Below, piece after piece: positions 11,913-57,640 of a stretch of 64,000 nucleotides of DNA; the first letter of the stretch is position 1; the number at the start of each line of letters is the position of its first letter. The position numbers and the translations under genes were made by a program. Source of the stretch: a virus (taxonomy: Duplodnaviria > Caudoviricetes); the IMG/VR virus record IMGVR_UViG_3300021978_000001, positions 96,001 through 160,000 of that record. One strand, given 5' to 3'. The notes beneath the pieces are model-generated. The model was not told the origin of the DNA. It ran no database searches and saw only the letters and a list, made by a program, of their open reading frames with translations.

Positions 11913-12082
11913 GATGTCCCTCATATCGTTTCGTGCCGTGGTGTGTTGTCGTCTTCCGTTCCGTACATTTACTGATACCACAAGGCATGAGGGGCGTAAA
12001 AACTTTCTCGAAGAAAAAACGAAGAAAGCTCTTACGCCGCCAGGACAGGTAGGCGACATACGGTCGAGAGGGTCTGACGTTT

Positions 12083-12995: not shown

Positions 12996-13712
12996 TTAGT
13001 TAGTAGGGGCGTAGAACTCCGGCATCCCCTCGACGGTGTACCCGAGCGGGACGTACACGTCTGACAGGAGCGTGTCGAGGGCTTCCTTGAAATAAGACGC
13101 GAGAGGCGGCCCTCCAATCACATTCAAGCCCAACTCTTCTCCCTCCTCATTCAAGGCAGTGAGAGACTCGTGGTGCTCTCGAATCAGGCGCGCGAAGCCT
13201 TCCTGCACCTCATCATACGTCAGAGCCTCTTCGAGCATGCACTCGAAGTCTCGAATAAGCTCTTGCACGACCGTGGCGATACGCGCGCCATGGGCGGCGG
13301 CGTGCGGCTTGAAAGTCTTGGGTTTGCCCTGAAGCTCCGCAGTGAGGATGAGTACCCACAACGGGTTGAGAGACAGCGCCAGCGTGAGCGCGACCATGGC
13401 ATTGGGTGGCGCCAGCGTGTCATGGAACGCATTCAGAATGTCAAAGCCCAGTTCCGTATCCGACAGCTCTACCACGCTCTCGGGGATCTGCATATGCGTC
13501 GCGGTAGGCAAGTTTGGCGCGAGGCTCTGGAGAAGCGCGACCGCGCGCACCCATCCGCAGACAGGTTGAAAATCCAGCTCCATGGTGAGCTTCAGCGCTT
13601 GCCGGTCTGAAATGACCCAGGACTTTTCGGTTTCGAGCTTGCGCCCTGCGAGCAGGCGCGCGGCCTTGATAAGATCTTGTGGCATGATTGACTCCGTTGT
13701 CGTGTGTGCCAT
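12996..13712 (-). CDS. hypothetical protein
   Basis: ORF with upstream promoter motif at 13723-13750. Confidence 0.65.
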   Translation of the reverse strand: MAHTTTESIMPQDLIKAARLLAGRKLETEKSWVISDRQALKLTMELDFQPVCGWVRAVALLQSLAPNLPTATHMQIPESVVELSDTELGFDILNAFHDTLAPPNAMVALTLALSLNPLWVLILTAELQGKPKTFKPHAAAHGARIATVVQELIRDFECMLEEALTYDEVQEGFARLIREHHESLTALNEEGEELGLNVIGGPPLASYFKEALDTLLSDVYVPLGYTVEGMPEFYAPTN

Positions 13713-13760
13713 TGGAGTCTCTTGTTACCACAAGCGCTAGAAGGTGTAAAGACAGAAAGC

Positions 13761-14051
13761 TCAAGACGGATAACGAAACTCACGCACATTATCCCAATAC
13801 GTCTCTTGCGAGTACCGGATCACGCGATGAGAAACCCCGTATTCACTCTGAAGAACCTCGATCACTGCCAACAGCTTCCAGGCACCTATCCCTTCACAGC
13901 TCGCCATGGCATACATATCCCCGCGCCACACCCCACCACTTGCCCTGATGATCTGGAGAAAGTGCAGCGCTTGTGCGTGGATCATGTTCTGAGGCCACTT
14001 GCGTGCCTTGTTTACGGTACGCAGCTCATCATGGAACGCATTAATCAACAT
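13761..14051 (-). CDS. hypothetical protein
   Basis: ORF track; starts MLINAF like two genes at 46-47 kb. Confidence 0.55.
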   Translation of the reverse strand: MLINAFHDELRTVNKARKWPQNMIHAQALHFLQIIRASGGVWRGDMYAMASCEGIGAWKLLAVIEVLQSEYGVSHRVIRYSQETYWDNVREFRYPS

Positions 14052-14062
14052 AGAGCACCTCG

Positions 14063-14143
14063 ATATTCATTATAATGCATATCAAGACCTTTCGAGCTAC
14101 TTTCGAGACCCGAATTGCACAGAATATGCATTATAATGAATAT
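14063..14143. repeat. perfect 20-bp AT-rich inverted repeat with 41-bp spacer
   Basis: ATATTCATTATAATGCATAT (14063-14082) and its reverse complement (14124-14143). Confidence 0.9.
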
Positions 14144-14145
14144 GG

Positions 14146-14400
14146 TCACAGGATAGTGTAGCCCTGCTCGGTGAGCCACGCGCGCAACGCGGTAACGTCC
14201 CGGTCGGGGAAGGGGCTGAGACGCACGGTCCGGCCATCTTCGAGCGTGGCCGTCGCCAGGACGTGACTATACCCTGGAAACAGATCACCGACCGCGTATG
14301 CTCCGAGATCCGGGAGCACGAAGCAACTCTGCTGTCGTGGCGGCGTCGCGTACACGGCATGAACGCGGTTTCCCGCTGTGACTCGCATAAAATGATACAT
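14146..14400 (-). CDS. hypothetical protein directly downstream of the CRISPR array
   Basis: GGAG RBS just after the terminal degenerate repeat; 84 aa. Confidence 0.6.
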   Translation of the reverse strand: MYHFMRVTAGNRVHAVYATPPRQQSCFVLPDLGAYAVGDLFPGYSHVLATATLEDGRTVRLSPFPDRDVTALRAWLTEQGYTIL

Positions 14401-14407
14401 CTCTTTT

Positions 14408-14730
14408 CTCCTAAGCCCCGCATGCGCGGGGAACCTGGTTTGTGCTATCTGGCACGGCGGGCCATCCCCGCATACGCGGGGAACACTCTCTCTTGTCGTC
14501 TCAGTCAACGCCAGGTGTGGGGCCATCCCCGCATACGCGGGGAACACTGCGTGTAGAGTGAGCCCCTCTCTTCCCAAACGGGACCATCCCCGCATGCGCG
14601 GGGAATACGCGAATCAAAATCGAGGTCAAGCCCTTCTTGGCGGACCATCCCCGCATGCGCGGGGAACACTGCGCTTCCTTGTCTTTCTCGTCCTTCGAGC
14701 GCGGACCATCCCCGCATGCGCGGGGAACAC
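14408..14730 (-). CRISPR. orphan type I-E-like mini-array: 5 full repeats plus 1 degenerate, four 33-nt spacers and one 23-nt spacer
   Basis: Repeat GTGTTCCCCGCGCATGCGGGGATGGTCC at 14459, 14520, 14581, 14642, 14703 (61-nt period); leader and TTGACA promoter at 14731-14840; no cas genes in window. Confidence 0.95.
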
Positions 14731-14803
14731 TCTGAGACATCTTGTCACAGTTCAGCACGCCGATGACCTCGAACAACACCCATTCCCGAGTGTCAGAGAC
14801 AGA

Positions 14804-14840
14804 AATACCCTACTTGATGGGTGATGTCAAGTAGGGTATT
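14804..14840. promoter_or_regulatory. palindromic promoter/operator of the CRISPR array
   Basis: 14-bp arms AATACCCTACTTGA / TCAAGTAGGGTATT, 9-bp spacer; contains TTGACA-N17-TATTTC on the minus strand. Confidence 0.75.
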
Positions 14841-14876
14841 GAGGATCAGCGCAGGTATTCTTTACTGAGGTACTCC

Positions 14877-16577
14877 TTACTGAGGACCGCGCAGGACATC
14901 GGTGCCGCCGAAGTTATTGACCGAGAACGTCACAGGGTCACCGACCTTCCATTGCTCATAGGTCTCCAGGGATACCTCGAACTCTCTGGAGTACCCATGT
15001 TCAGGCTTGAACGCCTTCGGGTCCTTATCATACCCGAGGGTGACGTAGTAGCTCCCCTTTGTACGCGTGCGCTCGTGGACACCAGGGGACGCCTCGGGCC
15101 AACGGGGCTCGTTGGTACCGCTCAGGTTGTACGTCCCCGCAGAAGCCCAACGCTGCGTCTTGTACTGGCACCAGGGGCGTGTCACGGAGCGCTCGCACAT
15201 GCGGTCCACCACGTCGTGGTCATGGATAGGCTCCTGGTGCGACTTCGTGCATGTCGAGTCTTCCATGGTGTAGGTGATGTCCGTGCACGTCGTGTTCTCC
15301 CAGGTGCGCACGCGCTTACGGCACGTCGAATCCACCATCTTGGTGCAATAGGTAGTCACGCAAGAGCGCTTGGCCGATCCGTTGGATTTGCGCTTCGTCG
15401 AGCACTTCTCTCCACAGGCCACGCGCTCCGCCTTGCGACAGGACACCATCTTGGTCTCCCAGATCGGCTTCTTGCATGGCTTGACCTTCTCGTGTCGGAC
15501 ACGCTTTTTACACGGCTCCTCGGTGACCACGGTCTTCATGTGGCGGCATGCCACCTCACGCTGGCCACACACATACTGCTCGTTGTGGTGATGCTTGGGC
15601 GCGCATGACACGATATGCACACCCGCGCGCTCACCTGTGCCTTTCGTGGGCGGCACCTCGGGGATCTCTCGGATGTTCTCTTGCCAGTCTTCCTTGTACA
15701 CGTTCTCCCAACGCTCGACGTACAACGTGCGCTCCCAACGCATGGCTTCGACGTTGCCGTCCACCTCGTGTGAGGTACATCCCCACCGCAAGAACAGGAT
15801 GAGCCCCGAGATCATGCCTCCCCAGAAGAGGACGAACATCACCCGGTGAGGGATGTACCGAACCTGTGACGTGGACTTCGGCGCCACGGGTTCGATCCGT
15901 GGGATCTTCATCTCGGGCGGATCTTCGGGTGTCTCGTGCGCTTCTGCCTCCTGCGCTTCTGCCTCCTGCGCGTCAGCATTCTGAGCATCATACTCGACCG
16001 AACTCGGGAGGTCGGTATCTTCCCACTCGGGGCGCGCTTCATGCGTCTCTTCTTTCATCTGCGCCTTGAACGCAGAGCGCCCTTCTTGTGCGCGTTCGAG
16101 CTGACTCGCATGCGCATCGTCCATGTCAAAGGACAGCCCTTGCGCCGCGCGCATTCCGGCATACTCACCAAACTGTTCCACAAGGAACGCAGACACGCCC
16201 TGGTCCCCGTCCATGTAAGCCTGGAAGGTCTCGTAATCGAGCGCGTCTCTCAGGTCATCATCGGAAGCTCCACGGCTCGCATGACAATGATGACACTCGC
16301 GCTCATCGGCGTAGTTATCCGCCTGACAGTTGGTGCAGAACCAGCTCGCCCCGAGGTCCCCGAAGCGCGCTTCCTCTTCAGGCGTGAACGCGCGCTCCTC
16401 GTGGTTCCACTCATCCCAGGACTCATCATCACCCGGGAGATAGGCGTTATCGAACTCGACGAAGGTTCTTGTATGGCCACACTCCGGGCACGAACGGTGG
16501 CGCGGGCTACAGGGTATCCCTTGCAGTCCGCAGTCCGTACAATCCCAGAGCATCCAATAGGAGGTATCTCTACTCAT
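14877..16577 (-). CDS. membrane protein: N-terminal Zn ribbons, one TM helix, Cys-rich C-terminal domain
   Basis: WDCTDC..CPECG, WFCTNC..CHHC; TM VMFVLFWGGMISGLILFL; about 16 Cys in the C-terminal part. Confidence 0.75.
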   Translation of the reverse strand: MSRDTSYWMLWDCTDCGLQGIPCSPRHRSCPECGHTRTFVEFDNAYLPGDDESWDEWNHEERAFTPEEEARFGDLGASWFCTNCQADNYADERECHHCHASRGASDDDLRDALDYETFQAYMDGDQGVSAFLVEQFGEYAGMRAAQGLSFDMDDAHASQLERAQEGRSAFKAQMKEETHEARPEWEDTDLPSSVEYDAQNADAQEAEAQEAEAHETPEDPPEMKIPRIEPVAPKSTSQVRYIPHRVMFVLFWGGMISGLILFLRWGCTSHEVDGNVEAMRWERTLYVERWENVYKEDWQENIREIPEVPPTKGTGERAGVHIVSCAPKHHHNEQYVCGQREVACRHMKTVVTEEPCKKRVRHEKVKPCKKPIWETKMVSCRKAERVACGEKCSTKRKSNGSAKRSCVTTYCTKMVDSTCRKRVRTWENTTCTDITYTMEDSTCTKSHQEPIHDHDVVDRMCERSVTRPWCQYKTQRWASAGTYNLSGTNEPRWPEASPGVHERTRTKGSYYVTLGYDKDPKAFKPEHGYSREFEVSLETYEQWKVGDPVTFSVNNFGGTDVLRGPQ

Positions 16578-18956: not shown

Positions 18957-19805
18957 TCACCCCTTGTAAAGGCGAAGCCTGCGCGTCAAGGGGTCGAGGT
19001 CTTCTGGATAATGAGGACCGATCGCGAGCGCGGTCACGGTAGGCTCATCGAACACCGTGCGCCCTTCATCCTCGATCAAGGCTACACGCAGCCCTTTCGC
19101 GACCGCTTTCGCATGCAAGTTGCGGAGCGCCTCTTCACTCTTGACGCCCACCACGATCTTGGCATACGAGCCTTCGCGCCATGCGACATCCTCCGCGCGC
19201 ATGTTCATCTGGAGCTGGCCATGCCCCGCGTGCGGTCCTGCGGTGTTCCCGCTCCCCTGGACGGCACCCTGGAGGAACGCTTCGAGAGACGCATGCGCGG
19301 CTTGCGCGGCTGCTTTCCCGGGGGGCATCTCCAGGTCCTTTCGCAAGACGATCACTTGTTTGGGCTCACCTTTGACCTCGCGCGCGGGCTTTGCTTCGGG
19401 CGCGGGGTTACGTCGAGCTTGCGCCATGGCATCAGCAGACACATTTTTCATGCACAGGTGCGAGGTGAGCCCTCCCAGGAGTCTCCCTGCTTCGTTGGTA
19501 TGCGTACACACCGTCCCTACCACCCTGGCGGGCTTGGTCAGGGAAGCGAACTTCTGCCCCTCTACGGGTTCTGTGCAGTCGTTCCACGACCCTTCGAGCG
19601 CGACAAGGTACACCCCCGCGCCCGCCCATGTACCATCGACCATCTTGAGCGCGCCCTTGATGTAAATGAGGTACTGCAAGGCGCTCTCCAACGTGGGCCA
19701 CACCGAACCTCCCACATCTTTATAGAAGGGCGTATGCTTCCATTGCTCGTATTGCGGGAGGTTTCCAATCGTGTAGGCTTGCTTGCCCGGCCATGTGTCT
19801 TCCAT
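18957..19805 (-). CDS. unknown N-terminal domain fused to Pth2-type peptidyl-tRNA hydrolase
   Basis: KQVIVLRKDLEMPPGKAAAQAAHAS...AKIVV...IEDEGRT...TALAIGP. Confidence 0.85.
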   Translation of the reverse strand: MEDTWPGKQAYTIGNLPQYEQWKHTPFYKDVGGSVWPTLESALQYLIYIKGALKMVDGTWAGAGVYLVALEGSWNDCTEPVEGQKFASLTKPARVVGTVCTHTNEAGRLLGGLTSHLCMKNVSADAMAQARRNPAPEAKPAREVKGEPKQVIVLRKDLEMPPGKAAAQAAHASLEAFLQGAVQGSGNTAGPHAGHGQLQMNMRAEDVAWREGSYAKIVVGVKSEEALRNLHAKAVAKGLRVALIEDEGRTVFDEPTVTALAIGPHYPEDLDPLTRRLRLYKG

Positions 19806-19846
19806 TTACTTGTTCTCCTCTATAAAACTCAGACGTTGTGTGCAGT

Positions 19847-20539
19847 TCACGTGCAGGAAGTCCAGGTCCCTCTCTTGACGCGGCGCGCGCGAGATGATGC
19901 CGCGAGATCTCGCAAGACTGTCGAGATCGCGGACCTGGGGTTACTATAGCACGACGCGTAATGAGGCACACGCTCGAACAGCTCCCTGGTCGTGACCTCC
20001 TCGTGGCCCTTCAGTTGGGCCTCGACCCAGGCAAGCAAGAGCTTGTAATGCGTGTGATACTCCTGAGCCCCACTCGGGTACCCCGCGAGAACGTCCCTGT
20101 TCTCATCACACAGCAGGAGCTTCCTGGTGTTTCGATGCAGGTATCTGTCATCGAGGCGCTCCGCTTCGATGTGTGTCGTGAAACCTTCACCATTGAAACT
20201 CATCAGACCTTGCTTGGTCCAGCGACCCCCCTTGTAAGCCTCGTCCCACTTTTTGATGGTCGCTTCGCGCGGTGTCGCGATCGTGGCACCCCAGATCTCA
20301 TCTGCGACGTGGTAGATGTCGAGCTTCCACGCCTGACGTCTCAAGGTTTTATCCGAGCGTCGCTTCATCTCGACCGCCACCACATACTCGGGGCAGTTGC
20401 AGGGACCTGTATGCCCCACGTGGTCGATGAAGATACTCTTCCCAAACATGGCTACCTCGCCATGCACGCACAACCCGCGCGCTCGCAGGTGTGCAATAAC
20501 ATGGGGCGATAGCTCCAACTCTGTTGTCAACTTGGTCAT
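19847..20539 (-). CDS. putative PD-(D/E)XK nuclease-like protein
   Basis: EV...IDHVG...AVEMK pattern; weak. Confidence 0.5.
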   Translation of the reverse strand: MTKLTTELELSPHVIAHLRARGLCVHGEVAMFGKSIFIDHVGHTGPCNCPEYVVAVEMKRRSDKTLRRQAWKLDIYHVADEIWGATIATPREATIKKWDEAYKGGRWTKQGLMSFNGEGFTTHIEAERLDDRYLHRNTRKLLLCDENRDVLAGYPSGAQEYHTHYKLLLAWVEAQLKGHEEVTTRELFERVPHYASCYSNPRSAISTVLRDLAASSRARRVKRGTWTSCT

Positions 20540-20622
20540 GCGCTCTCCTTTCGCGTAAGCCGTTTATACCACATGTTATAAGAGGTGTATAGTGCAGTAC
20601 ACGTTATGTCGCGAGAAAGGAG

Positions 20623-20913
20623 GTGTGCATGTGGCGTACAACGTTGGTTTTGGGAGTCCTGACGTTCTTCTGTGTTGGCGTGATCTGGTGGTGGCTTCCG
20701 ATCAAGGAAGGCTCTGCACCGCAAGAGGAAGAGGTGATCACGTTTAGCCCCGCGCAGCTCGTGCCCAAATACTCCGATGAGTACCTGGAGTATTGCGCGG
20801 ACCCCGCACCGGATGGCGCGCTCATGTCCATGGTCAATGGCACCTGGGTCGAGGGTGATCCCGACTTCTGCATGGGCGAGAAGAGCGAAGCCGAGATCTT
20901 CGGGTACCGCTAA
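20623..20913 (+). CDS. small membrane-anchored protein (rare plus-strand gene)
   Basis: AGGAGG RBS, N-terminal TM helix, divergent from 19847-20539. Confidence 0.65.
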   Translation: MCMWRTTLVLGVLTFFCVGVIWWWLPIKEGSAPQEEEVITFSPAQLVPKYSDEYLEYCADPAPDGALMSMVNGTWVEGDPDFCMGEKSEAEIFGYR

Positions 20914-21375
20914 TCACTCGTCCATAAAGGGGTTACCCAGAACACGGTTAAGGTCTGCTTCCTGTCGCCGTATCATAGTCTTGAGTTCATCCTGGGTGAG
21001 TTGTTCGACCACCTTCGAGTGTAACAACATCAGCACGGCATACAGCCCACACGCCGTTTCCTTCCAATGCGGACATTCAGTCAAGCATCCCTCTGTATAA
21101 GGACCCCGACCGGATGGCACATGATCGAAGCGTACCACAAAAAGGTCGTCTGGACGCTTGATCACGCGGCAGCTATACACCATCGTGTCCGCGAGATCCA
21201 AACTGTCGAGCATGGTCGGAAAGTACCTGCGGCTGCATGGGATACCCCGATGCGCGGGCCAATGCTCATGCCCCCATGCCGCGAGAAAAGCGTGCAGGTT
21301 ATTGACGTAGCGCACCAGGTCTGGGTGCTTCTCCATGGTGAGAAACGCCTGGAAGCTCTCAGACCGGGTTATCAT
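20914..21375 (-). CDS. hypothetical protein
   Basis: ORF track; start inferred. Confidence 0.55.
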   Translation of the reverse strand: MITRSESFQAFLTMEKHPDLVRYVNNLHAFLAAWGHEHWPAHRGIPCSRRYFPTMLDSLDLADTMVYSCRVIKRPDDLFVVRFDHVPSGRGPYTEGCLTECPHWKETACGLYAVLMLLHSKVVEQLTQDELKTMIRRQEADLNRVLGNPFMDE

Positions 21376-22369
21376 CACTGTCCTCCCCGCTCGCGTCTTG
21401 TGCTGTAAGGTTATGCAAGCCCCAGACAGACGATGCCACGACCGCTTCGATGAAGTCTCCCGAGGTGTCCCCAGGTTCTTCCTCTTCTTCCGAGGTGTCC
21501 AACGTGATGCCCATCTCTCGCAGCAGGTGTGCATTCTGACGCAGCAAGTTTATCGCTTGCTCTCGGGTCGCTTCCCTGGCCTCACGCATGCGATCTGGGA
21601 TCACGTAACCCTCGGGGCGCTCTCCATCACTCGCGGGAACTGCTACACCATCACGAATCACAACCCCCGTTGTACTGTAGACCGCAGGGTCGATGTCATC
21701 ACTTGAGTACGTCGTTGGTACAGTCGTTGGCACAGTCCCGAGAGACCCCGCGAAGATCTCACCACAAGGGTTCTGGTCGATGCGTCCGGGGCGGGTGACC
21801 TCCCACCGAGGCCCCTGATCACGTGGACCCCACGCACGCTCATCCTCTGGAAGCTCTGTAGCATTCCTGTCCAGAAAACCATCGCGCATGATGGAAGCAA
21901 GCCAGCGCTGGAATTGGGTATGATTTATGGTAGACGCGTTCGCGTTGGTCTTGAACTCCGCTACCATGGTGGGGGCCGCGTGAACCTCGGAGCGATCATC
22001 GAGCTTCAAACGAGGAGCCTCCCCTTCATTCATGCATAGGTGCAAGAGACGCAGCTCTTCAAGAAGATACGCCCCCACACGTTGCCATGTCGCATGGTTT
22101 CCGAAATAAGTGATGTGGCCGCAATCTCTCCGCGCCACCAGCACAGAGTCGTACATCACCGTCAATACGCGCGCACCTTCGATGCACGCGGGTCTCTCCT
22201 GTGCTTCTCCCATGATGCAAGCACCCAGGGGGTAGATAAGAGGCTGGCCTTCCTCCTGTTCCACAAAGGCCGCCGCTGCCTCGAAGAGATGCATGGTATG
22301 TTGCACTTGAATGGGATGTGCCTGGACATGCGCGAGAGCTTGCCAGGATGCGGAACGTATCAGTGTCAT
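21359..22369 (-). CDS. hypothetical protein
   Basis: 336-aa ORF, ATGA overlap. Confidence 0.65.
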   Translation of the reverse strand: MTLIRSASWQALAHVQAHPIQVQHTMHLFEAAAAFVEQEEGQPLIYPLGACIMGEAQERPACIEGARVLTVMYDSVLVARRDCGHITYFGNHATWQRVGAYLLEELRLLHLCMNEGEAPRLKLDDRSEVHAAPTMVAEFKTNANASTINHTQFQRWLASIMRDGFLDRNATELPEDERAWGPRDQGPRWEVTRPGRIDQNPCGEIFAGSLGTVPTTVPTTYSSDDIDPAVYSTTGVVIRDGVAVPASDGERPEGYVIPDRMREAREATREQAINLLRQNAHLLREMGITLDTSEEEEEPGDTSGDFIEAVVASSVWGLHNLTAQDASGEDSDDNPV

Positions 22370-23993: not shown

Positions 23994-24038
23994 CTCTTGA
24001 GACTGACACTAAGAATGAATGCGAACCCTGAAGGAAAG

Positions 24039-24110
24039 TGACCGTGGGGGGAATCGAACCCCCAACCATGGCTTTTAGAGAGCCTTGCTCTGCCGTTGAG
24101 CTACACGGTC
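24039..24110 (-). tRNA. amber suppressor tRNA (anticodon CTA)
   Basis: Full cloverleaf GACCGTG/CACGGTC, D-stem GCTC/GAGC, loop CTCTAAA, T-arm GGGGG-TTCGATT-CCCCC. Confidence 0.85.
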
Positions 24111-24213: not shown

Positions 24214-24241
24214 GGTACATCCCCGCAGGTGCGGGGAGCCT
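24214..24241 (-). CRISPR. solitary, diverged I-E-like repeat
   Basis: AGGCTCCCCGCACCTGCGGGGATGTACC; CCCCGC-N4-GCGGGG hairpin in the same register as the array repeat. Confidence 0.6.
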
Positions 24242-25760: not shown

Positions 25761-26123
25761 TCACGAAGGGGGAGGGCGCGAAGACAGCGCCAAGGGCAGC
25801 TCACGTACCAGATCACGCACGACCTCATCACACGGTTCTCCGCAAAGAGGGCGCAAGGCTACAGCCGTCAGCGCTCCCTCATAGAAGGGCTCGTGGAATG
25901 CTTTGTGCGGGATGTCTTCGGTACGGAGCGTTTGGACCGCATCTGCGAGGGTCGCAGGGTCCGCAGCAAGCAACACAATACGATTCGAGATCTCGTGCCA
26001 ACACTGAACATGCTCTGGATAGTCGAGCGTGAACTCGATCGCAGCATGCAGCGCTTGAGAGGCTTGCTGTCCCGGAGACAGGTCGTCCCGGGTGATGACG
26101 TAGAATTTAGCGTTCTACAACAT
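25761..26123 (-). CDS. Pth2-like peptidyl-tRNA hydrolase with in-frame TAG at codon 3
   Basis: AGGAG-N7-ATG TTG TAG AAC GCT AAA TTC TAC GTC ATC ACC CGG GAC GAC CTG = ML*NAKFYVITRDDLSPGQQASQALHAAIEF, in frame with track ORF 25761-25976. Confidence 0.75.
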
Positions 26124-26515: not shown

Positions 26516-26600
26516 GGTATCCCTCTCTTATCGTGATCATTCAGTGTTGGTGTCTTGTCCGTACACTTCCTGATACCACAAGGGTTAGGGCGCGTAAAAG

Positions 26601-27308: not shown

Positions 27309-27374
27309 GGATAAAGCCTCCAGGAATTTCTGCCTGGCTTCGCCTTACACGCAGAGTGGCTACGTGTAAGGTAT

Positions 27375-27485
27375 AGGAGGTTGCACGGGATTGAACCGTG
27401 CTATCGCTCATGTCAGCCCGAAGGCACCACGCGCGAATTATCCGAGAACCATAAACCCGGCATTTCGACACGCCGTTTGGTCTCC
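27375..27485 (-). ncRNA. tRNA-like structured RNA of unknown class
   Basis: Ends in T-arm CACGG-TTCAATC-CCGTG then ACCTCC; several hairpins including GCC-TTCG-GGC; no standard cloverleaf. Confidence 0.4.
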
Positions 27486-27514: not shown

Positions 27515-27542
27515 GGACCATCCCCTCATACGAGGGGAACAT
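27515..27542 (-). CRISPR. solitary I-E-like repeat with compensatory stem change
   Basis: ATGTTCCCCTCGTATGAGGGGATGGTCC (CCCCTC/GAGGGG stem). Confidence 0.8.
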
Positions 27543-28218: not shown

Positions 28219-28240
28219 CAGTTGAACCTCGCTATGTAAA

Positions 28241-28379
28241 TCTGAGCCGAACAAGGTGTGGATCTGGGGGTTTAGCGTGCTACCATTACACTACCCTGGG
28301 GGTTAACCCAGGGCCGGGACTCGAACCCGGACCGCCTGATTTGCATTCAGATAACCCATCTCCGGCATCTCGGCTCAGA
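28241..28379 (-). tRNA. circularly permuted tRNA-Cys(GCA) (28275-28350) inside hairpin cassette
   Basis: Order: anticodon arm, T arm, CCCTGGG, TTAACC, CCCAGGG, D arm; U73; joining restores C27-G43. Confidence 0.8.
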
Positions 28380-28407
28380 ACTGTGCTCTCTCTTGTTACG
28401 AGAGAAG

Positions 28408-28825: not shown

Positions 28826-28891
28826 GTCACGGTCAAAGTGATGTATATGGAATATTCTATCTCCGATAATCCATACACGGCATACCGTAAC
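28826..28891 (-). ncRNA. hairpin cassette, near-empty copy
   Basis: GTTACGGT-ATGCCG-TGTATGGATTATC-short loop-TATTCCATATACA-TCACTTTG-ACCGTGAC. Confidence 0.55.
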
Positions 28892-28892
28892 A

Positions 28893-28973
28893 AGCGAGCG
28901 ACGGGACTCGAACCCGCATGCGTTAAAGCGACAGCTTGGAAGGCTGTTGTCCGACCAGTTGGACCTCACTCGC
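28893..28973 (-). tRNA. tRNA-Gly(TCC) with unusually long variable region
   Basis: ACAGC-CTTCCAA-GCTGT, U73, 13-nt variable region. Confidence 0.8.
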
Positions 28974-29172: not shown

Positions 29173-29315
29173 ATTGCGTGGTCAAACGGAGCGTAACAGG
29201 AGTGTTGACTCGTGCTCTGCCGGTTGAGCTAGAAGTGCCACTCGTCATGACACAACCCGGGACTCGAACCCGGAACCACAAGTTTGGATAACCCTATCAC
29301 TGCATACCACGCAAT
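29173..29315 (-). tRNA. degenerate circularly permuted tRNA (Gly/His-like) in hairpin cassette
   Basis: T arm precedes D arm; acceptor has 2 mismatches; anticodon loop would be non-standard. Confidence 0.55.
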
Positions 29316-29437
29316 CATGGTCCTTCTCCCTAAGATCTCCCTGAGAAGAAGGTTTGGGTTGGATGAACCTCTCACTGACACCTTGATCGACCGAAATTGA
29401 CGACAACGACAGACAAGAGGATGAGAGGTTCATCCAG

Positions 29438-30007: not shown

Positions 30008-30152
30008 GTACACCGGATAAGGGATGAGAGTGGATGTTTTTGGCGCTTTACCACTAAGCTACACAGCCGTAAACGATGGCTGTGGGTTGGAATCGAACCA
30101 ACCGATCTCCCCGTTAAGAGCGGATAACCCACGGCTCTTCAGCCCGATGTAC
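30008..30152 (-). tRNA. circularly permuted tRNA-Lys(CTT) (30042-30123) inside hairpin cassette
   Basis: CCG-CTCTTAA-CGGGG, T arm, CACAGCC-A-TCGTTTAC-GGCTGTG, D arm, GCC; joining gives a perfect 5-bp anticodon stem. Confidence 0.85.
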
Positions 30153-30154
30153 AG

Positions 30155-30227
30155 TACCACAGGTGGGGGTCGAACCCACAACATCCTGGTTTTGAACCAA
30201 GCGCCTCTTCCATTGGGCCACTGTGGC
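30155..30227 (-). tRNA. tRNA-Leu(CAA), short variable loop
   Basis: CTTGG-TTCAAAA-CCAGG; 5-nt variable region. Confidence 0.75.
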
Positions 30228-31051: not shown

Positions 31052-31195
31052 GGACCATCCCCGCATACGCGGGGAACACGCTCCACAACACACTCGGGCG
31101 CCTGGGTATACCCACGACGCAGATCCGCTTGACGGTGGAGCGACAGGCGGAAGTGGTACGGCAAGGCGAACCATCCCCGCGCACGCGGGGAACAT
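31052..31195 (-). CRISPR. two I-E-like repeats (31052-31079, 31168-31195) separated by 88 nt, between tRNA-Ile and tRNA-Met
   Basis: Near-identical to the array repeat. Confidence 0.85.
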
Positions 31196-31406: not shown

Positions 31407-31555
31407 TGTACATGAATCGAACAAGGTAGTGAGCAAGGGGTTTTTACGAGTGCTACCGTTACACCACATGTCCGGGTGGACATGCTGGGACTCGAACCCA
31501 GACCACGCGCTCCGCTGGCGATAACCCTTATCTCGGTCATCTCGATTCATGTACA
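31407..31555 (-). tRNA. circularly permuted tRNA-Arg(GCG) (31447-31520) inside hairpin cassette
   Basis: CGC-CAGCGGA-GCGCG, T arm, CATGTCC-ACCC-GGACATG, D arm, TCG; joining gives a perfect CGCGC/GCGCG stem. Confidence 0.8.
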
Positions 31556-31556
31556 G

Positions 31557-31630
31557 TAGGGCTGACAGGAGTCGAACCTGCGACCATCTCCGTGTAAGGA
31601 AGCTGCTCTGACCAACTGAGCTACAGCCCT
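31557..31630 (-). tRNA. tRNA-Val(TAC)
   Basis: Canonical cloverleaf. Confidence 0.9.
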
Positions 31631-31666: not shown

Positions 31667-31757
31667 GCGCCATCCCCGCATGCGCGGGGAACACTAAATC
31701 TGAACAAACACAAGCAGAGCGCCCGAGATGAACCATCCCAGCATATGCAGGGAAATC
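31667..31757 (-). CRISPR. repeat-spacer-repeat unit (31667-31694 and degenerate 31730-31757, 35-nt spacer) upstream of tRNA-Val
   Basis: GTGTTCCCCGCGCATGCGGGGATGGCGC plus a degenerate copy. Confidence 0.75.
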
Positions 31758-31960: not shown

Positions 31961-32009
31961 TTTCTTCCTGAACCGGGCAAAAAGTTCGATCGGAGTGCAT
32001 CCGATCCAG

Positions 32010-32086
32010 AGCAGCCAGTGGGAATCGAACCCACAACCTCCTCGGGACCATCACCACAGATGTGGTGAAAATTGAGCCATGGCTGC
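32010..32086 (-). ncRNA. tRNA-CRISPR repeat chimera
   Basis: Acceptor GCAGCCA/TGGCTGC and intact T arm; the D/anticodon region is a 28-nt repeat variant at 32045-32072. Confidence 0.75.
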
Positions 32087-51584: not shown

Positions 51585-51658
51585 CGCTTACCTCCGAGCG
51601 TCGGTTCCCTCATGTTATAGAGGATGCATACCACAAAAGCAAGACCGTGTAAAAGGAG

Positions 51659-52102
51659 TTATTCGGTATCGAGATCTGGATTGAGATCAGTCTCGGGGAG
51701 GGACTCGACCGTGAAGAGGCGACGCCCGATAGAGTGATAGTCCATGCGCCTACGAAGGGGCTCGACCATGCGCTCTGCAATATGCTCACGTCCATGGTGA
51801 TTCGCGATCATGCGACTTAACCAGCTCTGCCATTCATGATCGCGACGCTCTGCTTGAGGCAATGTGCCGATGCCTTGCGCGAGCGCGTCTCCGAGCACGG
51901 TGCGCACGTACACATCCCGAACGTAATGCCTATGCCGTGACATCGCAGGAGAGTCGAAAGGCTCATCGCTGTCGAGCCAGATCGCCTCATCCAAAATACC
52001 CGCAAGCGTCAGAGCTTGATCCCACAAGCCTCGGTTCATCATCGAACGCAGATCCCCGAAAGTCAGCGCACGCACGTCTTCGGCTGACCAGAGGTCACTC
52101 AT
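51659..52102 (-). CDS. hypothetical protein
   Basis: ORF track, adjusted start. Confidence 0.6.
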   Translation of the reverse strand: MSDLWSAEDVRALTFGDLRSMMNRGLWDQALTLAGILDEAIWLDSDEPFDSPAMSRHRHYVRDVYVRTVLGDALAQGIGTLPQAERRDHEWQSWLSRMIANHHGREHIAERMVEPLRRRMDYHSIGRRLFTVESLPETDLNPDLDTE

Positions 52103-52775
52103 CGCTTCCGTCGCTTTCCGTAATCTCGAAGAGAGGAGCAAAGACGCGATGAAACTTAACTGGTTGCTCTTGTAGGGACTGCTTCGTGACTTGGCGTAGA
52201 CGATCGGCCTCCCTCATTTCAGCGTTGGCGCGAATGCGTTGCTGCACGGTGAGCACTTCTGAGGGAGCAGGGATGCAAACCGCGTCGGGATACCTCTCGG
52301 AGCGCCAACGTGCGAGCGCCTCGCGCAACCCAGTGACGTAATCCTCCATATCCTCGGGAGAAACGTTCGTCACGCAAGAGGTGCTTGGGATACGCGAAGT
52401 CGTCACGTTCTTACACGTCACGTTCTCAGCAAGCCAACACTTGCGCGCTTTCTGTTGCCTTTCCACGTAGGAAAGCTCCTTGCTTGCTTTCTCGCTGGTC
52501 TCATCGTTGACTTCCGCACACGTATCCGAGAGCTTCGCAGAGAAAGCCTTTGTGGCCTCGGTCGCACCCGAAAACGAAAAACCCCAGCATTCCATGGCAC
52601 GTGTTGCGATCTCTAGCGATAAACGCCTGACCGCTTCAGGGTTTGAGACCTTGCCCTCACCTTCGCAACCCGTGCAAGGATTCTCGACGGTCACCAAGCC
52701 CACATACTTACCCTGACCATCGCAACGGTCACAACGTTTATACAGATCCTCAAGCTCCCAACTACCCTTACCCAT
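52095..52775 (-). CDS. hypothetical protein with N-terminal DnaJ-like Zn finger
   Basis: CDRCDGQGKYVGLVTVENPCTGCEGEG. Confidence 0.65.
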   Translation of the reverse strand: MGKGSWELEDLYKRCDRCDGQGKYVGLVTVENPCTGCEGEGKVSNPEAVRRLSLEIATRAMECWGFSFSGATEATKAFSAKLSDTCAEVNDETSEKASKELSYVERQQKARKCWLAENVTCKNVTTSRIPSTSCVTNVSPEDMEDYVTGLREALARWRSERYPDAVCIPAPSEVLTVQQRIRANAEMREADRLRQVTKQSLQEQPVKFHRVFAPLFEITESDGSDE

Positions 52776-52805
52776 AACTATCCTCCGCGTTTCATGTGAT
52801 CAAAA

Positions 52806-52896
52806 AGAGCCGGGTGGGACTCGAACCCACGACATACCGCTTAAAAGGCGGATAGGACCATCCCCGCATGTGCGAGGAACAATAGCCCCACCCGGC
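52806..52896 (-). ncRNA. tRNA-Lys(TTT)-CRISPR repeat chimera
   Basis: Repeat TTGTTCCTCGCACATGCGGGGATGGTCC (52855-52882) in place of the D arm, followed by CCGC-CTTTTAA-GCGG, T arm and acceptor 3' strand. Confidence 0.75.
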
Positions 52897-52922
52897 AGCG
52901 TGCCTCACAAAGAGGCACCACC

Positions 52923-53315
52923 TTAGATGCTCGTTTCTGTGCTTCGCTCAAGGCGCCAGGGGTGATTGTCCCTGCGCAACAGAGGATACCCTGTCCCCGC
53001 TTCATCCTGCAACCAGAAGTGAGCATAAGGCACAGACACCATGTCGAACGTCAACCAAAGCGGACCCGACACAGGTTCTTCGCCCGTTGCCTCGTGGCGT
53101 GAAATCCCGCATTCGAGATCCCGTCGCGCCTTGATGCCCATACGCCCGAGGTCTGTCGAGGCTGTGCGGGCCAGCCAGATCACTGCAAGATCCTGTGCGT
53201 CTTCGAGTGTGGCACATTCTCCCAGCGCGTGAACAGGACGATGCCGCTTGCGCTCGGAGCGCTTGGCGCCCTCGGTCGTGTCACGGCGGGAGAGATCGAC
53301 GATGTGATACTTCAT
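52923..53315 (-). CDS. hypothetical protein
   Basis: ORF track. Confidence 0.55.
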   Translation of the reverse strand: MKYHIVDLSRRDTTEGAKRSERKRHRPVHALGECATLEDAQDLAVIWLARTASTDLGRMGIKARRDLECGISRHEATGEEPVSGPLWLTFDMVSVPYAHFWLQDEAGTGYPLLRRDNHPWRLERSTETSI

Positions 53316-53582
53316 GGTGATGTTGTGCTAGAAGGTGAGAAAAGTGAGCGCGCTCCTCGCCGCAATTTCAAGGTGCATACACACCAGGAAACCTGTAGAC
53401 CGCTTCAAGGTCGTCGGAAGCCACACCGGCGTACTGTCGATCAAACAAGTAACGCAGGCTATCTAGGAGAACCAGGTTACTCACCTGGGGGCTTTCCCGA
53501 CGAGGAGCAAACGCTCGGTGTCTCCTGATCAATGGAGACACTACCTGTATACCAGAAGAGGCGCAGACCGTAAAAGGAAAGT

Positions 53583-53909
53583 TCAACCTTTCTTGAAAAA
53601 ACCTGCGAACATGCTCGCGTGTGCCAGGTTCTTCCCCACGAGCGTCACCTCGCGTGGATCTCCCCCACGGTCCACATCGCGATCATCGTAGAGACAGATC
53701 AGGGCCTCTTCCATGCTCTCGATCACACCGAGCTGGTCGAGCGTCTCGCGATCCTTGCCCGTGCGATACGCGAAGCTCACGAACATGCCGTCATCCTCGA
53801 ACTCACACGAGACCACAGCGGCGGGCCAGAGCGTGCGCACGAAGGCGACCCACTCGCGGACCGTGTAGTCTCTCGGGTCTGAGATGACGTAATCGAAGCC
53901 TCCGATCAT
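53583..53909 (-). CDS. hypothetical protein
   Basis: ATGA overlap. Confidence 0.6.
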   Translation of the reverse strand: MIGGFDYVISDPRDYTVREWVAFVRTLWPAAVVSCEFEDDGMFVSFAYRTGKDRETLDQLGVIESMEEALICLYDDRDVDRGGDPREVTLVGKNLAHASMFAGFFKKG

Positions 53910-54475
53910 TCCTCTTCTCCGTGTAACTCATCCCATAACTCGGGGAGCTGTCGATTCAGTTCGTAATGCATGAGCGCCTCGCGCCCCGCCAGGGTGATGT
54001 ACTGGAAGTTGTCGTTTCGGATCTCACTCAACCCCGCCTGGAGCAGCTCACCCACCACATGGTGGATAGGCTTGAGCGGGAACCCCGCCGCCGCGTTGTA
54101 GAACGCCCACTGCCCATCCTCATAGACATGAACATGCTGCTTGTGCTCCGTCTCCTCGACGAGGGCACACAGCGTCTCGCTATCCAAGCCTCCATGCTGA
54201 TAAAGGAAGCCAAGGACCTTGTAATGTACAGGGAGAGGATCACGAAGCCCGTCTTGTCCCTCGGGTTTGGACTCGTCTTGAGGCTCGATCAAGGTCATAT
54301 CTCCCGCGTCCGCAGGAGGATCGTCATTGGGATCGAGCAGCGTGAGCTTACCCTTGTCCCAGTTGAGCTGGCGGACACGCTTCACGAAGCGCTGGCGCGT
54401 CCTGGGCATGTAAATCCCCATCCCCACCGCGACAAGGAAGATCAGCAATACGGCACATGCCAGGATAGGCGTCAC
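53906..54475 (-). CDS. hypothetical membrane-anchored protein
   Basis: N-terminal TM helix. Confidence 0.6.
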   Translation of the reverse strand: MTPILACAVLLIFLVAVGMGIYMPRTRQRFVKRVRQLNWDKGKLTLLDPNDDPPADAGDMTLIEPQDESKPEGQDGLRDPLPVHYKVLGFLYQHGGLDSETLCALVEETEHKQHVHVYEDGQWAFYNAAAGFPLKPIHHVVGELLQAGLSEIRNDNFQYITLAGREALMHYELNRQLPELWDELHGEEE

Positions 54476-56905: not shown

Positions 56906-57640
56906 TCAGTCTGTCGAATCTTCAGACGTATCTTCGGGCGTGTCTTCGGGTAAGGGCATGTCCGCGACCGCGTTGCAGTGCATGACGTAACCAAGCTCCC
57001 AACGCGCGGCATCTGCCGTGGCCCCGTGGCCCGACAACCAACCAGACTTCGCGACGTAGCACTGGTCTTCCTCGCTCCACCCGCACTCATGGTCGCCCAG
57101 CATCTCGATGTACTCGGGGCGGACCGAGGTTTTGGGGAAGCATTGCGAGTCACCACAGAAGTCGCAGGATTCCATCAGCTCGAACCACGCCACACGACGA
57201 CGCACCTCCCAGGCATCCGGTCCTGTGAGCGAGATGAGGCTTGCAGGGAAATTCTCCGCCTGCGCGCGGAACGCGATCTCTTCGCCGGGCACCTCAGAGA
57301 CATCGACACCGATCTCATCCGCCAGCGCGTCGAGGTAGTCATCGGAGACCATCTCACGGGTGAGCTGCGGACCGAGATACGTGAAGCGCCATCCCGTATA
57401 CAGCTCGCCGTTCTCCAGCTCCTTGTCTTCCAGGTGCTCGTACCACATGTGAACAGGGCGGACCCACAGCGTGTCCAGCTCATCGAAAGGGCGGTAAGCC
57501 ACCAGGGGCGTCTGGTCTTCGCTGTGCTTGCCTACCCCCTCGCTCCAGTAGAGCTGCCCCTTGAAGTGGCGGTAGTAACCGCGTGGGATATTCTCGGGAC
57601 ATTGCGGGGTCAACTCATCAAGTGCCTTGTACTCGGTCAT
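56906..57640 (-). CDS. DUF1653-like N-terminal domain protein
   Basis: YYRHFKG.LY...HSE...LVAYRP...WVRP..MW.E. Confidence 0.75.
   Translation of the reverse strand: MTEYKALDELTPQCPENIPRGYYRHFKGQLYWSEGVGKHSEDQTPLVAYRPFDELDTLWVRPVHMWYEHLEDKELENGELYTGWRFTYLGPQLTREMVSDDYLDALADEIGVDVSEVPGEEIAFRAQAENFPASLISLTGPDAWEVRRRVAWFELMESCDFCGDSQCFPKTSVRPEYIEMLGDHECGWSEEDQCYVAKSGWLSGHGATADAARWELGYVMHCNAVADMPLPEDTPEDTSEDSTD

Follow-up and report, generated by a model that had tools for sequence, protein, structure and literature searches.

A solitary type I-E CRISPR repeat joined to the 3' two-thirds of a tRNA-Lys(UUU) gene in a complete phage genome

What is a single CRISPR repeat doing inside a tRNA gene? 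The question is raised by a locus in a 64,000-nucleotide stretch of phage DNA (the window), which comprises bases 96001-160000 of a 437,490-bp virus record. Terminal repeats are present in this record, it represents a complete phage. A first-pass annotation of the window described two fusions of a repeat with tRNA sequence, and the second of them (chimera 2, window 52896->52806, minus strand) is considered here. The annotation held that the repeat is fused in sense orientation to the last two-thirds of a tRNA-Lys gene; this was borne out, the elements listed below all lie on the minus strand (window coordinates).

53574-53549, minus: promoter-like motif TTTACG-N17-TGGTATA, kept in this phage and both sister phages
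52923-53315, minus: upstream ORF, 130 aa, no Pfam family, stop codon at 52925-52923
52883-52921, minus: unmatched flank, 39 nt, no counterpart in the sister phages by alignment
52918-52900, minus: 7-bp hairpin within the 39-nt flank, just past the stop codon of the upstream ORF
52896-52884, minus: GCCGGGTGGGGCT, complementary to 52821-52809 and followed by ATT before the repeat
52855-52882 (read 52882->52855), minus: solitary type I-E repeat, 28 nt, 25/28 to the genome consensus
52877-52872 / 52867-52862, minus: repeat hairpin stem CCUCGC/GCGGGG, 6 bp, loop ACAU, one U-G pair
52861-52855, minus: 3' handle ATGGTCC, 7 nt, identical to the consensus
between 52862 and 52861, minus: predicted Cas6e cut, from known type I-E biology
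52854, minus: one T linking the repeat to tRNA position 26, at position 29 of the repeat unit, which varies; C in the sister phages
52806-52853, minus: tRNA-Lys(UUU) 3' two-thirds at the spacer position, 48 nt, the same as positions 26-73 of the L038 tRNA
52852-52836, minus: anticodon arm of the remnant, with A26 before it, anticodon TTT at 52845-52843 and the variable loop after it
52830-52814, minus: T arm of the remnant
52813-52807, minus: 3' acceptor strand CCGGCTC of the remnant, followed by the discriminator T
52800-52806, minus: T-rich trailer TCTTTTTG, ancestral, TCTTTTCG in the sister phages
52095-52775, minus: downstream ORF, 226 aa, weak DnaJ-type zinc-finger match, ribosome-binding site 30 nt past the chimera

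By this arrangement chimera 2 sits between two ORFs inside one transcription unit. The nearest promoter-like motif of the phage lies ~650 nt upstream, ahead of the preceding ORF; no sigma-70-like promoter was found in 52000-54000 or directly upstream of the chimera. The same promoter-like motif (TTTACG, 17 nt, TGGTAT) is repeated ahead of minus-strand ORFs of the window, at 53549-53574, 51628-51653, 26573-26598, 11975-12000, 283-308 and other sites, and is kept in the sister phages L038 and L039. The trailer TCTTTTTG is a possible 3'-end former, as a match to a terminator-like consensus only.

The repeat itself is unlikely to be a chance match. A search with its 23-nt core, allowing up to 3 mismatches, found 11 sites in the window, where 0.00 were expected (none in 100 shuffles). 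The stem variant CCUCGC/GCGGGG was said to pair on the minus strand alone, by means of its U-G pair, and this is what is seen; the other repeats of the phage are on that same strand. The U-G pair is also present in a true array repeat at genome 26133, and the array repeat nearest to that of chimera 2 is at genome 26072. An array consists of at least two repeats with a ~33-nt spacer, and no second repeat was found within 4 kb of chimera 2. Chimera 2 is not an assembly artefact, for an independent public assembly (L167) agrees with the window at 100% over 6.4 kb. There is no other copy of the 39-nt flank in the phage genome or its relatives. The flank was also considered as a spacer followed by the tail of a further repeat, this was rejected as the similarity is too weak.

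The phage carries the CRISPR system to which such a repeat would belong. Its 437-kb genome contains ~65 type I-E repeats, which without exception lie on the minus strand and have a 61-bp period. They are grouped in about a dozen short arrays, and further lone copies are found within the tRNA cluster. The arrays and the interference module are located as follows (genome coordinates).

13-31 kb; 110 kb (window 14459-14730); 405-409 kb, minus: arrays
G000:C1:13165-31211, outside the window (loci L011, L012): type I-E interference module, with Cas8e-Cas11 fusion, Cas5e, Cas6e, Cas7e and Cas3
13651-15828: Cas8e-Cas11 fusion
19718-22339: Cas3

Short arrays sit between the cas genes, and Cas1 was not found in the phage genome. 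Cas6e (PF08798, 94 bits) aligns to E. coli CasE across the catalytic His motif and the C-terminal glycine-rich loop, which makes it a plausible catalyst. Variants of the repeat stem within the arrays retain pairing (CCCCGC/GCGGGG, CCCCAC/GTGGGG, CTCCGC/GCGGAG, CCCCTC/GAGGGG), therefore the hairpin is under selection as an RNA on the minus strand. The first nucleotide after the 28-nt repeat, the 29th position of the unit, is variable across arrays. Judged by these features, the repeat of chimera 2 belongs to a phage-encoded type I-E system with all of the parts needed for processing and interference.

The array spacers were compared with ~80 kb of loci, including 78 kb of kin DNA, and with the phage's own genome; none of the ~55 had a target or a near-copy there, and none matched a tRNA. 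Targeting of kin or of tRNAs is consequently not apparent as a theme of the arrays. As no spacer found a target, the spacers yielded no PAM for the system. Two spacers from different arrays, G000:C1:25917-25949 and 28873-28905 (after the repeats at 25950 and 28906), are 28/33 identical and look as if two alleles of one target were sampled; a search of IMG/VR returned no target for them. The region of the cas genes and arrays has no match in cultured phages. The repeat type is common in bacteria, many of them Actinomycetota together with one Burkholderiales MAG, and is too widespread for the host to be identified through it. Other IMG/VR contigs with this repeat type carry 1-10 repeats and are unrelated to the phage; no nearby tRNAs or chimeras were found in them.

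Where did the fusion come from? The 226-aa ORF downstream of chimera 2 has two homologues in a large protein index, and looking up their contigs led to two sister phages, L038 and L039. Both contigs are syntenic with the window at ~90% DNA identity. Each carries a normal 75-nt tRNA-Lys(UUU) exactly at the site of chimera 2. Between tRNA position 26 and the start codon of the ORF that follows, the three phages align base for base. The remnant has no differences from L038 and differs from L039 at two paired, compensatory positions in the anticodon stem. Upstream of position 26 the relatives have ~35 nt (an 8-nt leader and tRNA positions 1-25), where the window has ~68 nt, made up of the 39 unmatched nt, the 28-nt repeat and one T. 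With the intact tRNA at the same site in both sisters, we conclude that the fusion is a derived, lineage-specific event in which the tRNA was destroyed. It may have arisen by recombination or gene conversion between an array unit and the tRNA-Lys locus, although the support for this step is weaker.

The ancestral acceptor stem, as preserved in the sister phages, is GGGCCGG/CCGGCTC, and the 5' flank found today is therefore a different sequence from the former acceptor strand. The first-pass annotation, which placed the repeat where the D arm would be and noted the complementarity of the flank to the 3' end, is corrected in this respect; the ancestral GGGCCGG is gone, with the entire 5' third of the tRNA and the 8-nt leader replaced, and at most five flank bases (GCCGG) could be left from it. 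The same annotation regarded occurrence in one genome only, as a one-off recombination, as telling against a functional fusion, and the fusion is indeed seen in a single phage strain, its close relatives L038 and L039 having the uninterrupted tRNA. Searches of IMG/VR and JGI metagenomes with a degenerate junction pattern found no further copy, and searches of the same collections with the shared 3' part of the tRNA-Lys found nothing; no relatives were found in IMG/VR by protein, using the neighbouring ORF and Cas7e. The fusion is too young for a test of selection, and the absence of changes relative to L038 has no power as the event may be recent.

The remnant no longer has the form of a tRNA. 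Rfam scores it at 30.5 bits, just above threshold, where the genuine tRNAs of the window score 51-70 bits, and in the alignment the D arm is deleted and the 5' acceptor strand is poorly paired, with mismatches. ARAGORN makes no tRNA call at the site. When the T arm is formed the acceptor is GCCGG/CCGGC, which is 5 bp and falls short of a 7-bp stem, and the D arm with its G18-G19 loop is absent, the repeat stands in its stead. The anticodon arm, the variable loop and the T arm do have canonical form, and none differs from its counterpart in the L038 tRNA-Lys(UUU). Chimera 2 is a derived pseudo-tRNA. There are 33 tRNA calls in the whole genome and no intact tRNA-Lys(UUU) among them; its absence, asserted previously for the window, extends to all 437 kb. 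AAA makes up 25% of the Lys codons of the phage and tRNA-Lys(CUU) is retained, so the loss of tRNA-Lys(UUU) should be affordable. The phage also has an amber suppressor tRNA (window 24038-24110, minus, anticodon CTA, labelled tRNA-Pyl by ARAGORN), which is kept in the distant relatives L040 and L044, and TAG is the rarest stop codon among long ORFs (60/443).

The RNA of chimera 2 is predicted to be highly structured. Its minimum-energy fold is -47.7 kcal/mol (z = -3.7), in this fold the 5' flank and the 3' end are closed by 13 bp, the T arm is lost, and the repeat hairpin and the anticodon hairpin form branches. The complementarity of flank and 3' end is thus longer than was first claimed; it had been called perfect, and it includes one G-U pair. 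The flank pairing extends into the T stem and T loop and competes with the T arm. Among shuffles of the flank 0.6% attain at least 13 pairs, the complementarity is beyond chance and not overwhelming. If the T arm is forced, a cloverleaf-like fold of -43.3 kcal/mol results, 4.4 kcal/mol above the minimum, in which the flank pairs with the handle. The idea that the repeat replaces the D arm holds for this fold, where the repeat hairpin occupies the topological place of that arm.

Chimera 2 is not the only lone repeat in this group of phages. In the ~20 kb common to the window, L038 and L039, every phage has a single lone repeat that the other two lack, and no two of the three sites coincide; a more distant relative, L044, has a further one.

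L038 6012-6039: lone repeat before tRNA-Phe
L039 9326-9353: lone repeat in the 5' UTR of the homologue of the 130-aa ORF
L044 14013-14040: lone repeat, lineage-specific, replaces native non-coding sequence and abuts conserved native sequence

At the lone repeats of the window, L038 and L039 a native stretch has been replaced, and conserved native sequence resumes one nucleotide past the 28-nt repeat, where a spacer would start. The trinucleotides found in kin at the PAM position of these three repeats are AAC, TTT and AGT, which have nothing in common. For chimera 2 the bases ahead of the match in kin read GAAC, giving AAC or GAA as the trinucleotide.

The tRNA cluster of the window contains additional lone repeats, at 31052-31079, 31168-31195, 27515-27542 and 24214-24241 (minus), of which the one at 24214 is degenerate. 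Lone repeats precede tRNA-Met by 33 nt, the length of a spacer, and tRNA-Val by 36 nt, and one lies 35 nt past tRNA-Ala(UGC). A two-repeat mini-array is present at 31667-31757 (minus) with tRNA-Val 36 nt further on; L040 and L044 have tRNA-Trp at this position. The phage is without any tRNA-Trp and the tRNA-Gly(GCC) of its relatives is also missing, the cluster shows much turnover. A weak repeat-like match with 7 mismatches (window 57247-57274, minus) lies within a DUF1653 ORF and is kept in L038 and L039; most probably this is coding sequence rather than a CRISPR repeat.

The other fusion of the window also lies among these tRNAs.

32009-32086, minus: chimera 1, with a 7-bp acceptor stem, the start of a D stem (GCTCAATT) and a diverged repeat hairpin

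Its hairpin, CACCAC/GTGGTG, has compensatory changes, the ATGGTCC handle is exact, and there is no anticodon arm. The variable loop and T arm are those of tRNA-Lys(CUU), the acceptor resembles that of tRNA-Ala(GGC), and the distant relatives L040 and L044 have a tRNA-Gly where chimera 1 is located. An ARAGORN call of tRNA-Gln(ctg) at this site was rejected, the repeat hairpin had been misread as an anticodon arm. The 201-aa ORF adjoining chimera 1 has no homologue on record, no close relatives were found for the region, and two contigs tried for it (P0006 and P0007) are differently organised or too short. The two chimeras had been treated as independent fusions. The motif GGCT(C)A(A)TT is found immediately 5' of the repeat in both, which makes their independence doubtful.

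What could such an element do? We tentatively favour a reading, to which we give somewhat less than an even chance, in which the RNA of chimera 2 is cut by the phage Cas6e to give a single-repeat crRNA whose guide matches the tRNA-Lys of kin, with the phage's own copy shielded. The repeat would be transcribed with the operon and bound by Cas6e, which would cut it where the hairpin ends on its 3' side. Downstream of the cut the RNA would consist of a normal 5' handle and 48-55 nt of tRNA-Lys, and would stop near the former 3' end of the tRNA or the T-run; with a total of 56-62 nt it would be similar in length to an ordinary crRNA of 61 nt. Once in the phage Cascade, it would present a guide identical to the intact tRNA-Lys(UUU) of sister phages and could direct Cas3 at co-infecting kin, at a site that is not easily mutated. 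The own copy would be shielded by repeat sequence at the place of the PAM, as in arrays. As there is no other tRNA-Lys(UUU) gene in the genome, there should be no self target. The steps differ in strength: transcription and cutting of chimera 2 are probable, and loading of a cut RNA in a form able to interfere is evenly balanced.

Several observations argue for this guide reading. The phage has the interference module and ~65 repeats on the same strand, and in chimera 2 both hairpin and handle are intact. The sequence at the guide position matches L038 at 32/32 positions and L039 with one mismatch over 29 nt, so that a match to a related virus, the first feature looked for in kin targeting, is present. 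Private lone repeats next to conserved native sequence are found in all three sister phages. The known targets of viral mini-arrays are mostly related viruses (PMC11656645), type I-E systems work with unit-sized crRNAs that are made without Cas6e through transcription termination (PMC4499155), and PAM reading in E. coli type I-E is loose, with 17/64 trinucleotides supporting interference (PMC6568314).

Other observations count against it. Since no repeat follows downstream, the RNA would end without the 3' hairpin that Cas6e holds in a typical type I-E crRNA, and the Cas6e-independent crRNAs mentioned above were still unit-sized (PMC4499155). The guide is predicted to be strongly structured, and the flank might prevent cutting or loading by pairing with either the 3' end (13 bp) or the handle. 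The spacers gave no PAM, the three PAM-position trinucleotides are unlike, no array spacer matches 78 kb of kin DNA or any tRNA, and the fusion is in one strain.

The chief alternative is that chimera 2 is a young recombination scar with no selected role, in which a piece of array with its repeat was copied into a dispensable tRNA-Lys(UUU) and killed it. Action of Cas6e or Cascade on the transcript would then be incidental or slightly costly, and the element would decay. This explanation is a serious one, almost as likely as the guide reading although itself well short of even. A scar accounts readily for a fusion found in one strain whose two close relatives keep the tRNA, for a remnant that is non-functional in form (no D arm, a 5-bp acceptor, no ARAGORN call), for a codon, AAA, that is the minor one for Lys, and for a tRNA cluster whose turnover has also cost the phage tRNA-Trp and tRNA-Gly(GCC). 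It also fits the absence of a second repeat, the lack of a common PAM among the three lone repeats and the lack of any constraint beyond what youth explains. It fits less well with three independent gains of a lone repeat in ~20 kb of 90%-identical phages, which is a high rate in the absence of homology to the target and thus gives a hint of selection or of a dedicated mechanism. Hairpin and handle are both intact, an RNA that has them should bind Cas proteins as Racr RNAs do (PMC10651486), and in a phage dependent on those Cas proteins a truly neutral state is therefore unlikely. The 13-bp complementarity of the 5' and 3' ends, reached in 0.6% of shuffles only, also counts against a scar. Rather unlikely, in our view, is a Cas6e-dependent RNA element that is not a guide: either a processing or insulating site between the ORFs, replacing excision by RNase P and RNase Z, or a Cas6e-binding scaffold that tunes free Cas6e or Cascade. 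The chimera lies between two ORFs of one unit where the relatives have an excisable tRNA, and with arrays between every cas gene Cas6e would already cut the transcripts of its own operon. The closing stem or the cloverleaf-like fold would provide a compact, stable RNA; chimera 1 retains only acceptor stem, T arm and repeat hairpin, and Y-RNA-like tRNA mimics with a protein-binding stem are found in the cluster of a phage that has a TROVE/Rsr gene. Against such an element, natural type I-E repeats are not known to serve in processing outside arrays, a decoy would weaken the CRISPR system of the phage itself, and it offers no reason for a kept handle or for a junction placed exactly at the end of the repeat.

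Two further explanations seem less probable again. As an RNA anti-CRISPR (Racr), chimera 2 would be a repeat mimic that ties up the type I-E Cas proteins of the host. A solitary repeat in a viral genome is the defining form of Racr candidates (PMC10651486), and the repeat type is common in bacteria (mostly Actinomycetota, with the one Burkholderiales MAG). We consider this improbable: the same Cas6e, Cas7e and Cas5e are encoded by the phage, which presumably depends on them, so that a mimic would poison its own system; a promoter directly upstream was not found, and Racr loci are described as having no association with cas genes (PMC10651486). Least probable of all, to the point of being nearly dismissed, is a still-working tRNA-Lys(UUU) with an oversized D arm. 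Its canonical anticodon arm, variable loop and T arm, equal to those of the sister tRNA, a cloverleaf-like fold at -43.3 kcal/mol and an Rfam score just above threshold would be in its favour. Against it, the acceptor in register with the T arm is only 5 bp and has lost the first two ancestral base pairs, a D loop with G18-G19 is missing, ARAGORN makes no call, the score of 30.5 bits compares with 51-70 for the genuine tRNAs of the window, and Cas6e would cut the molecule in two.

How does chimera 2 compare with known systems? Racr RNAs (Camara-Wilpert et al. 2023, PMC10651486) are likewise single viral repeats outside an array with an intact hairpin, expected to bind Cas6 and Cas7. In contrast to them the phage studied here has the matching cas genes, the repeat is part of an operon, with no promoter of its own, and is joined to a kin-matching tRNA remnant, and inhibition would be self-harming. 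The mini-arrays of viruses that take part in conflicts between related viruses (PMC11656645) are similar in being short elements in which the sequence at the spacer position matches close relatives. They differ in having a repeat-spacer-repeat structure, where chimera 2 has one repeat, and in borrowing their effector from the host, where here it is phage-encoded; also the guide of chimera 2 would not have been taken up from elsewhere, it would be a gene of the phage itself that stayed where it was and was destroyed by the change. In CRISPR-associated transposons that home to sites beside tRNA genes, delocalized or atypical crRNAs (PMC11656645) resemble it as off-array guides with an off-consensus repeat that recognise a conserved tRNA gene. 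Those crRNAs guide transposition and avoid cleavage, whereas this phage has Cas3 and no transposase, and here the guide would be the tRNA gene itself.

In CreA and crlRNAs a stand-alone repeat and flanking sequence also yield a cr-like RNA (bioRxiv 10.1101/2023.03.03.530964). These act through partial matches to promoters in the same locus. For the guide of chimera 2 no second match of at least 14 nt exists in the 437-kb genome. Engineered tRNA-guide RNA arrays and tRNA scaffolds combine both kinds of RNA in one transcript, whose ends are defined by tRNA-processing enzymes and the Cas nuclease. In contrast, chimera 2 is natural, its tRNA part is incomplete and that part would itself be the guide. 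Open-access text yielded no description of a tRNA gene into which a natural CRISPR repeat had been fused.

The Y-RNA-like mimics of bacteria and phages (YrlA, Rfam RF02553) also combine a tRNA-like module with a stem for a dedicated protein, and several lie in the same cluster. Their partner, Rsr, is a different one, and they are conserved in relatives with compensatory changes, which the chimera is not. The mimics are structured elements of 130-150 nt with a long terminal stem, an anticodon-like hairpin, a T arm, a loop-closed acceptor-like hairpin and a D-arm-like hairpin. They occur at about 28240-28380, 29210-29330, 30045-30160, 31420-31560 and 27318-27403 (minus) of the window, and in the relatives at L040 12910-13340 and 14880-15080 and L044 14725-14925. 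The acceptor-like hairpin has compensatory changes between phages, and matches to the Rfam YrlA family are below threshold. A tRNA-Cys(gca) called by ARAGORN at 28306-28380 is part of one of these YrlA-like elements. The gene for a TROVE/Rsr protein is at genome 295346-296269. Among the classes considered, chimera 2 falls outside those of tRNA, array, Racr and crRNA-like regulator by the features that define them, and it has those of the phage's own repeat family; any function is inferred.

More broadly, the lone repeats of the clade could act as a CRISPR 'homing' or kin-exclusion device, a speculative and rather doubtful reading. A repeat would land in, or be copied into, conserved native sequence such as a tRNA gene. 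The carrier would lose the PAM side, and the adjoining sequence would become a guide against relatives with the uninterrupted allele, so that Cascade and Cas3 of the phage would destroy co-infecting kin. Repair from the carrier genome could then spread the repeat, much like a homing endonuclease gene. The three sister phages would be snapshots of this process, in each the sequence next to the private repeat matches the other two.

Even if chimera 2 is a scar, its comparison with the sister phages shows that lone CRISPR repeats move rapidly, and in a lineage-specific manner, into native genes for non-coding RNA. Should the RNA be cut and loaded, it would reveal a route to a CRISPR guide that does without spacer acquisition by Cas1-Cas2. 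The phage would make a guide by placing a repeat beside a conserved gene of its own, and would trade that gene for a weapon against kin; tRNA genes would be targeted because they are not easily mutated. This would be a concrete and testable case of CRISPR competition between near-identical huge phages that carry their own Cascade-Cas3.
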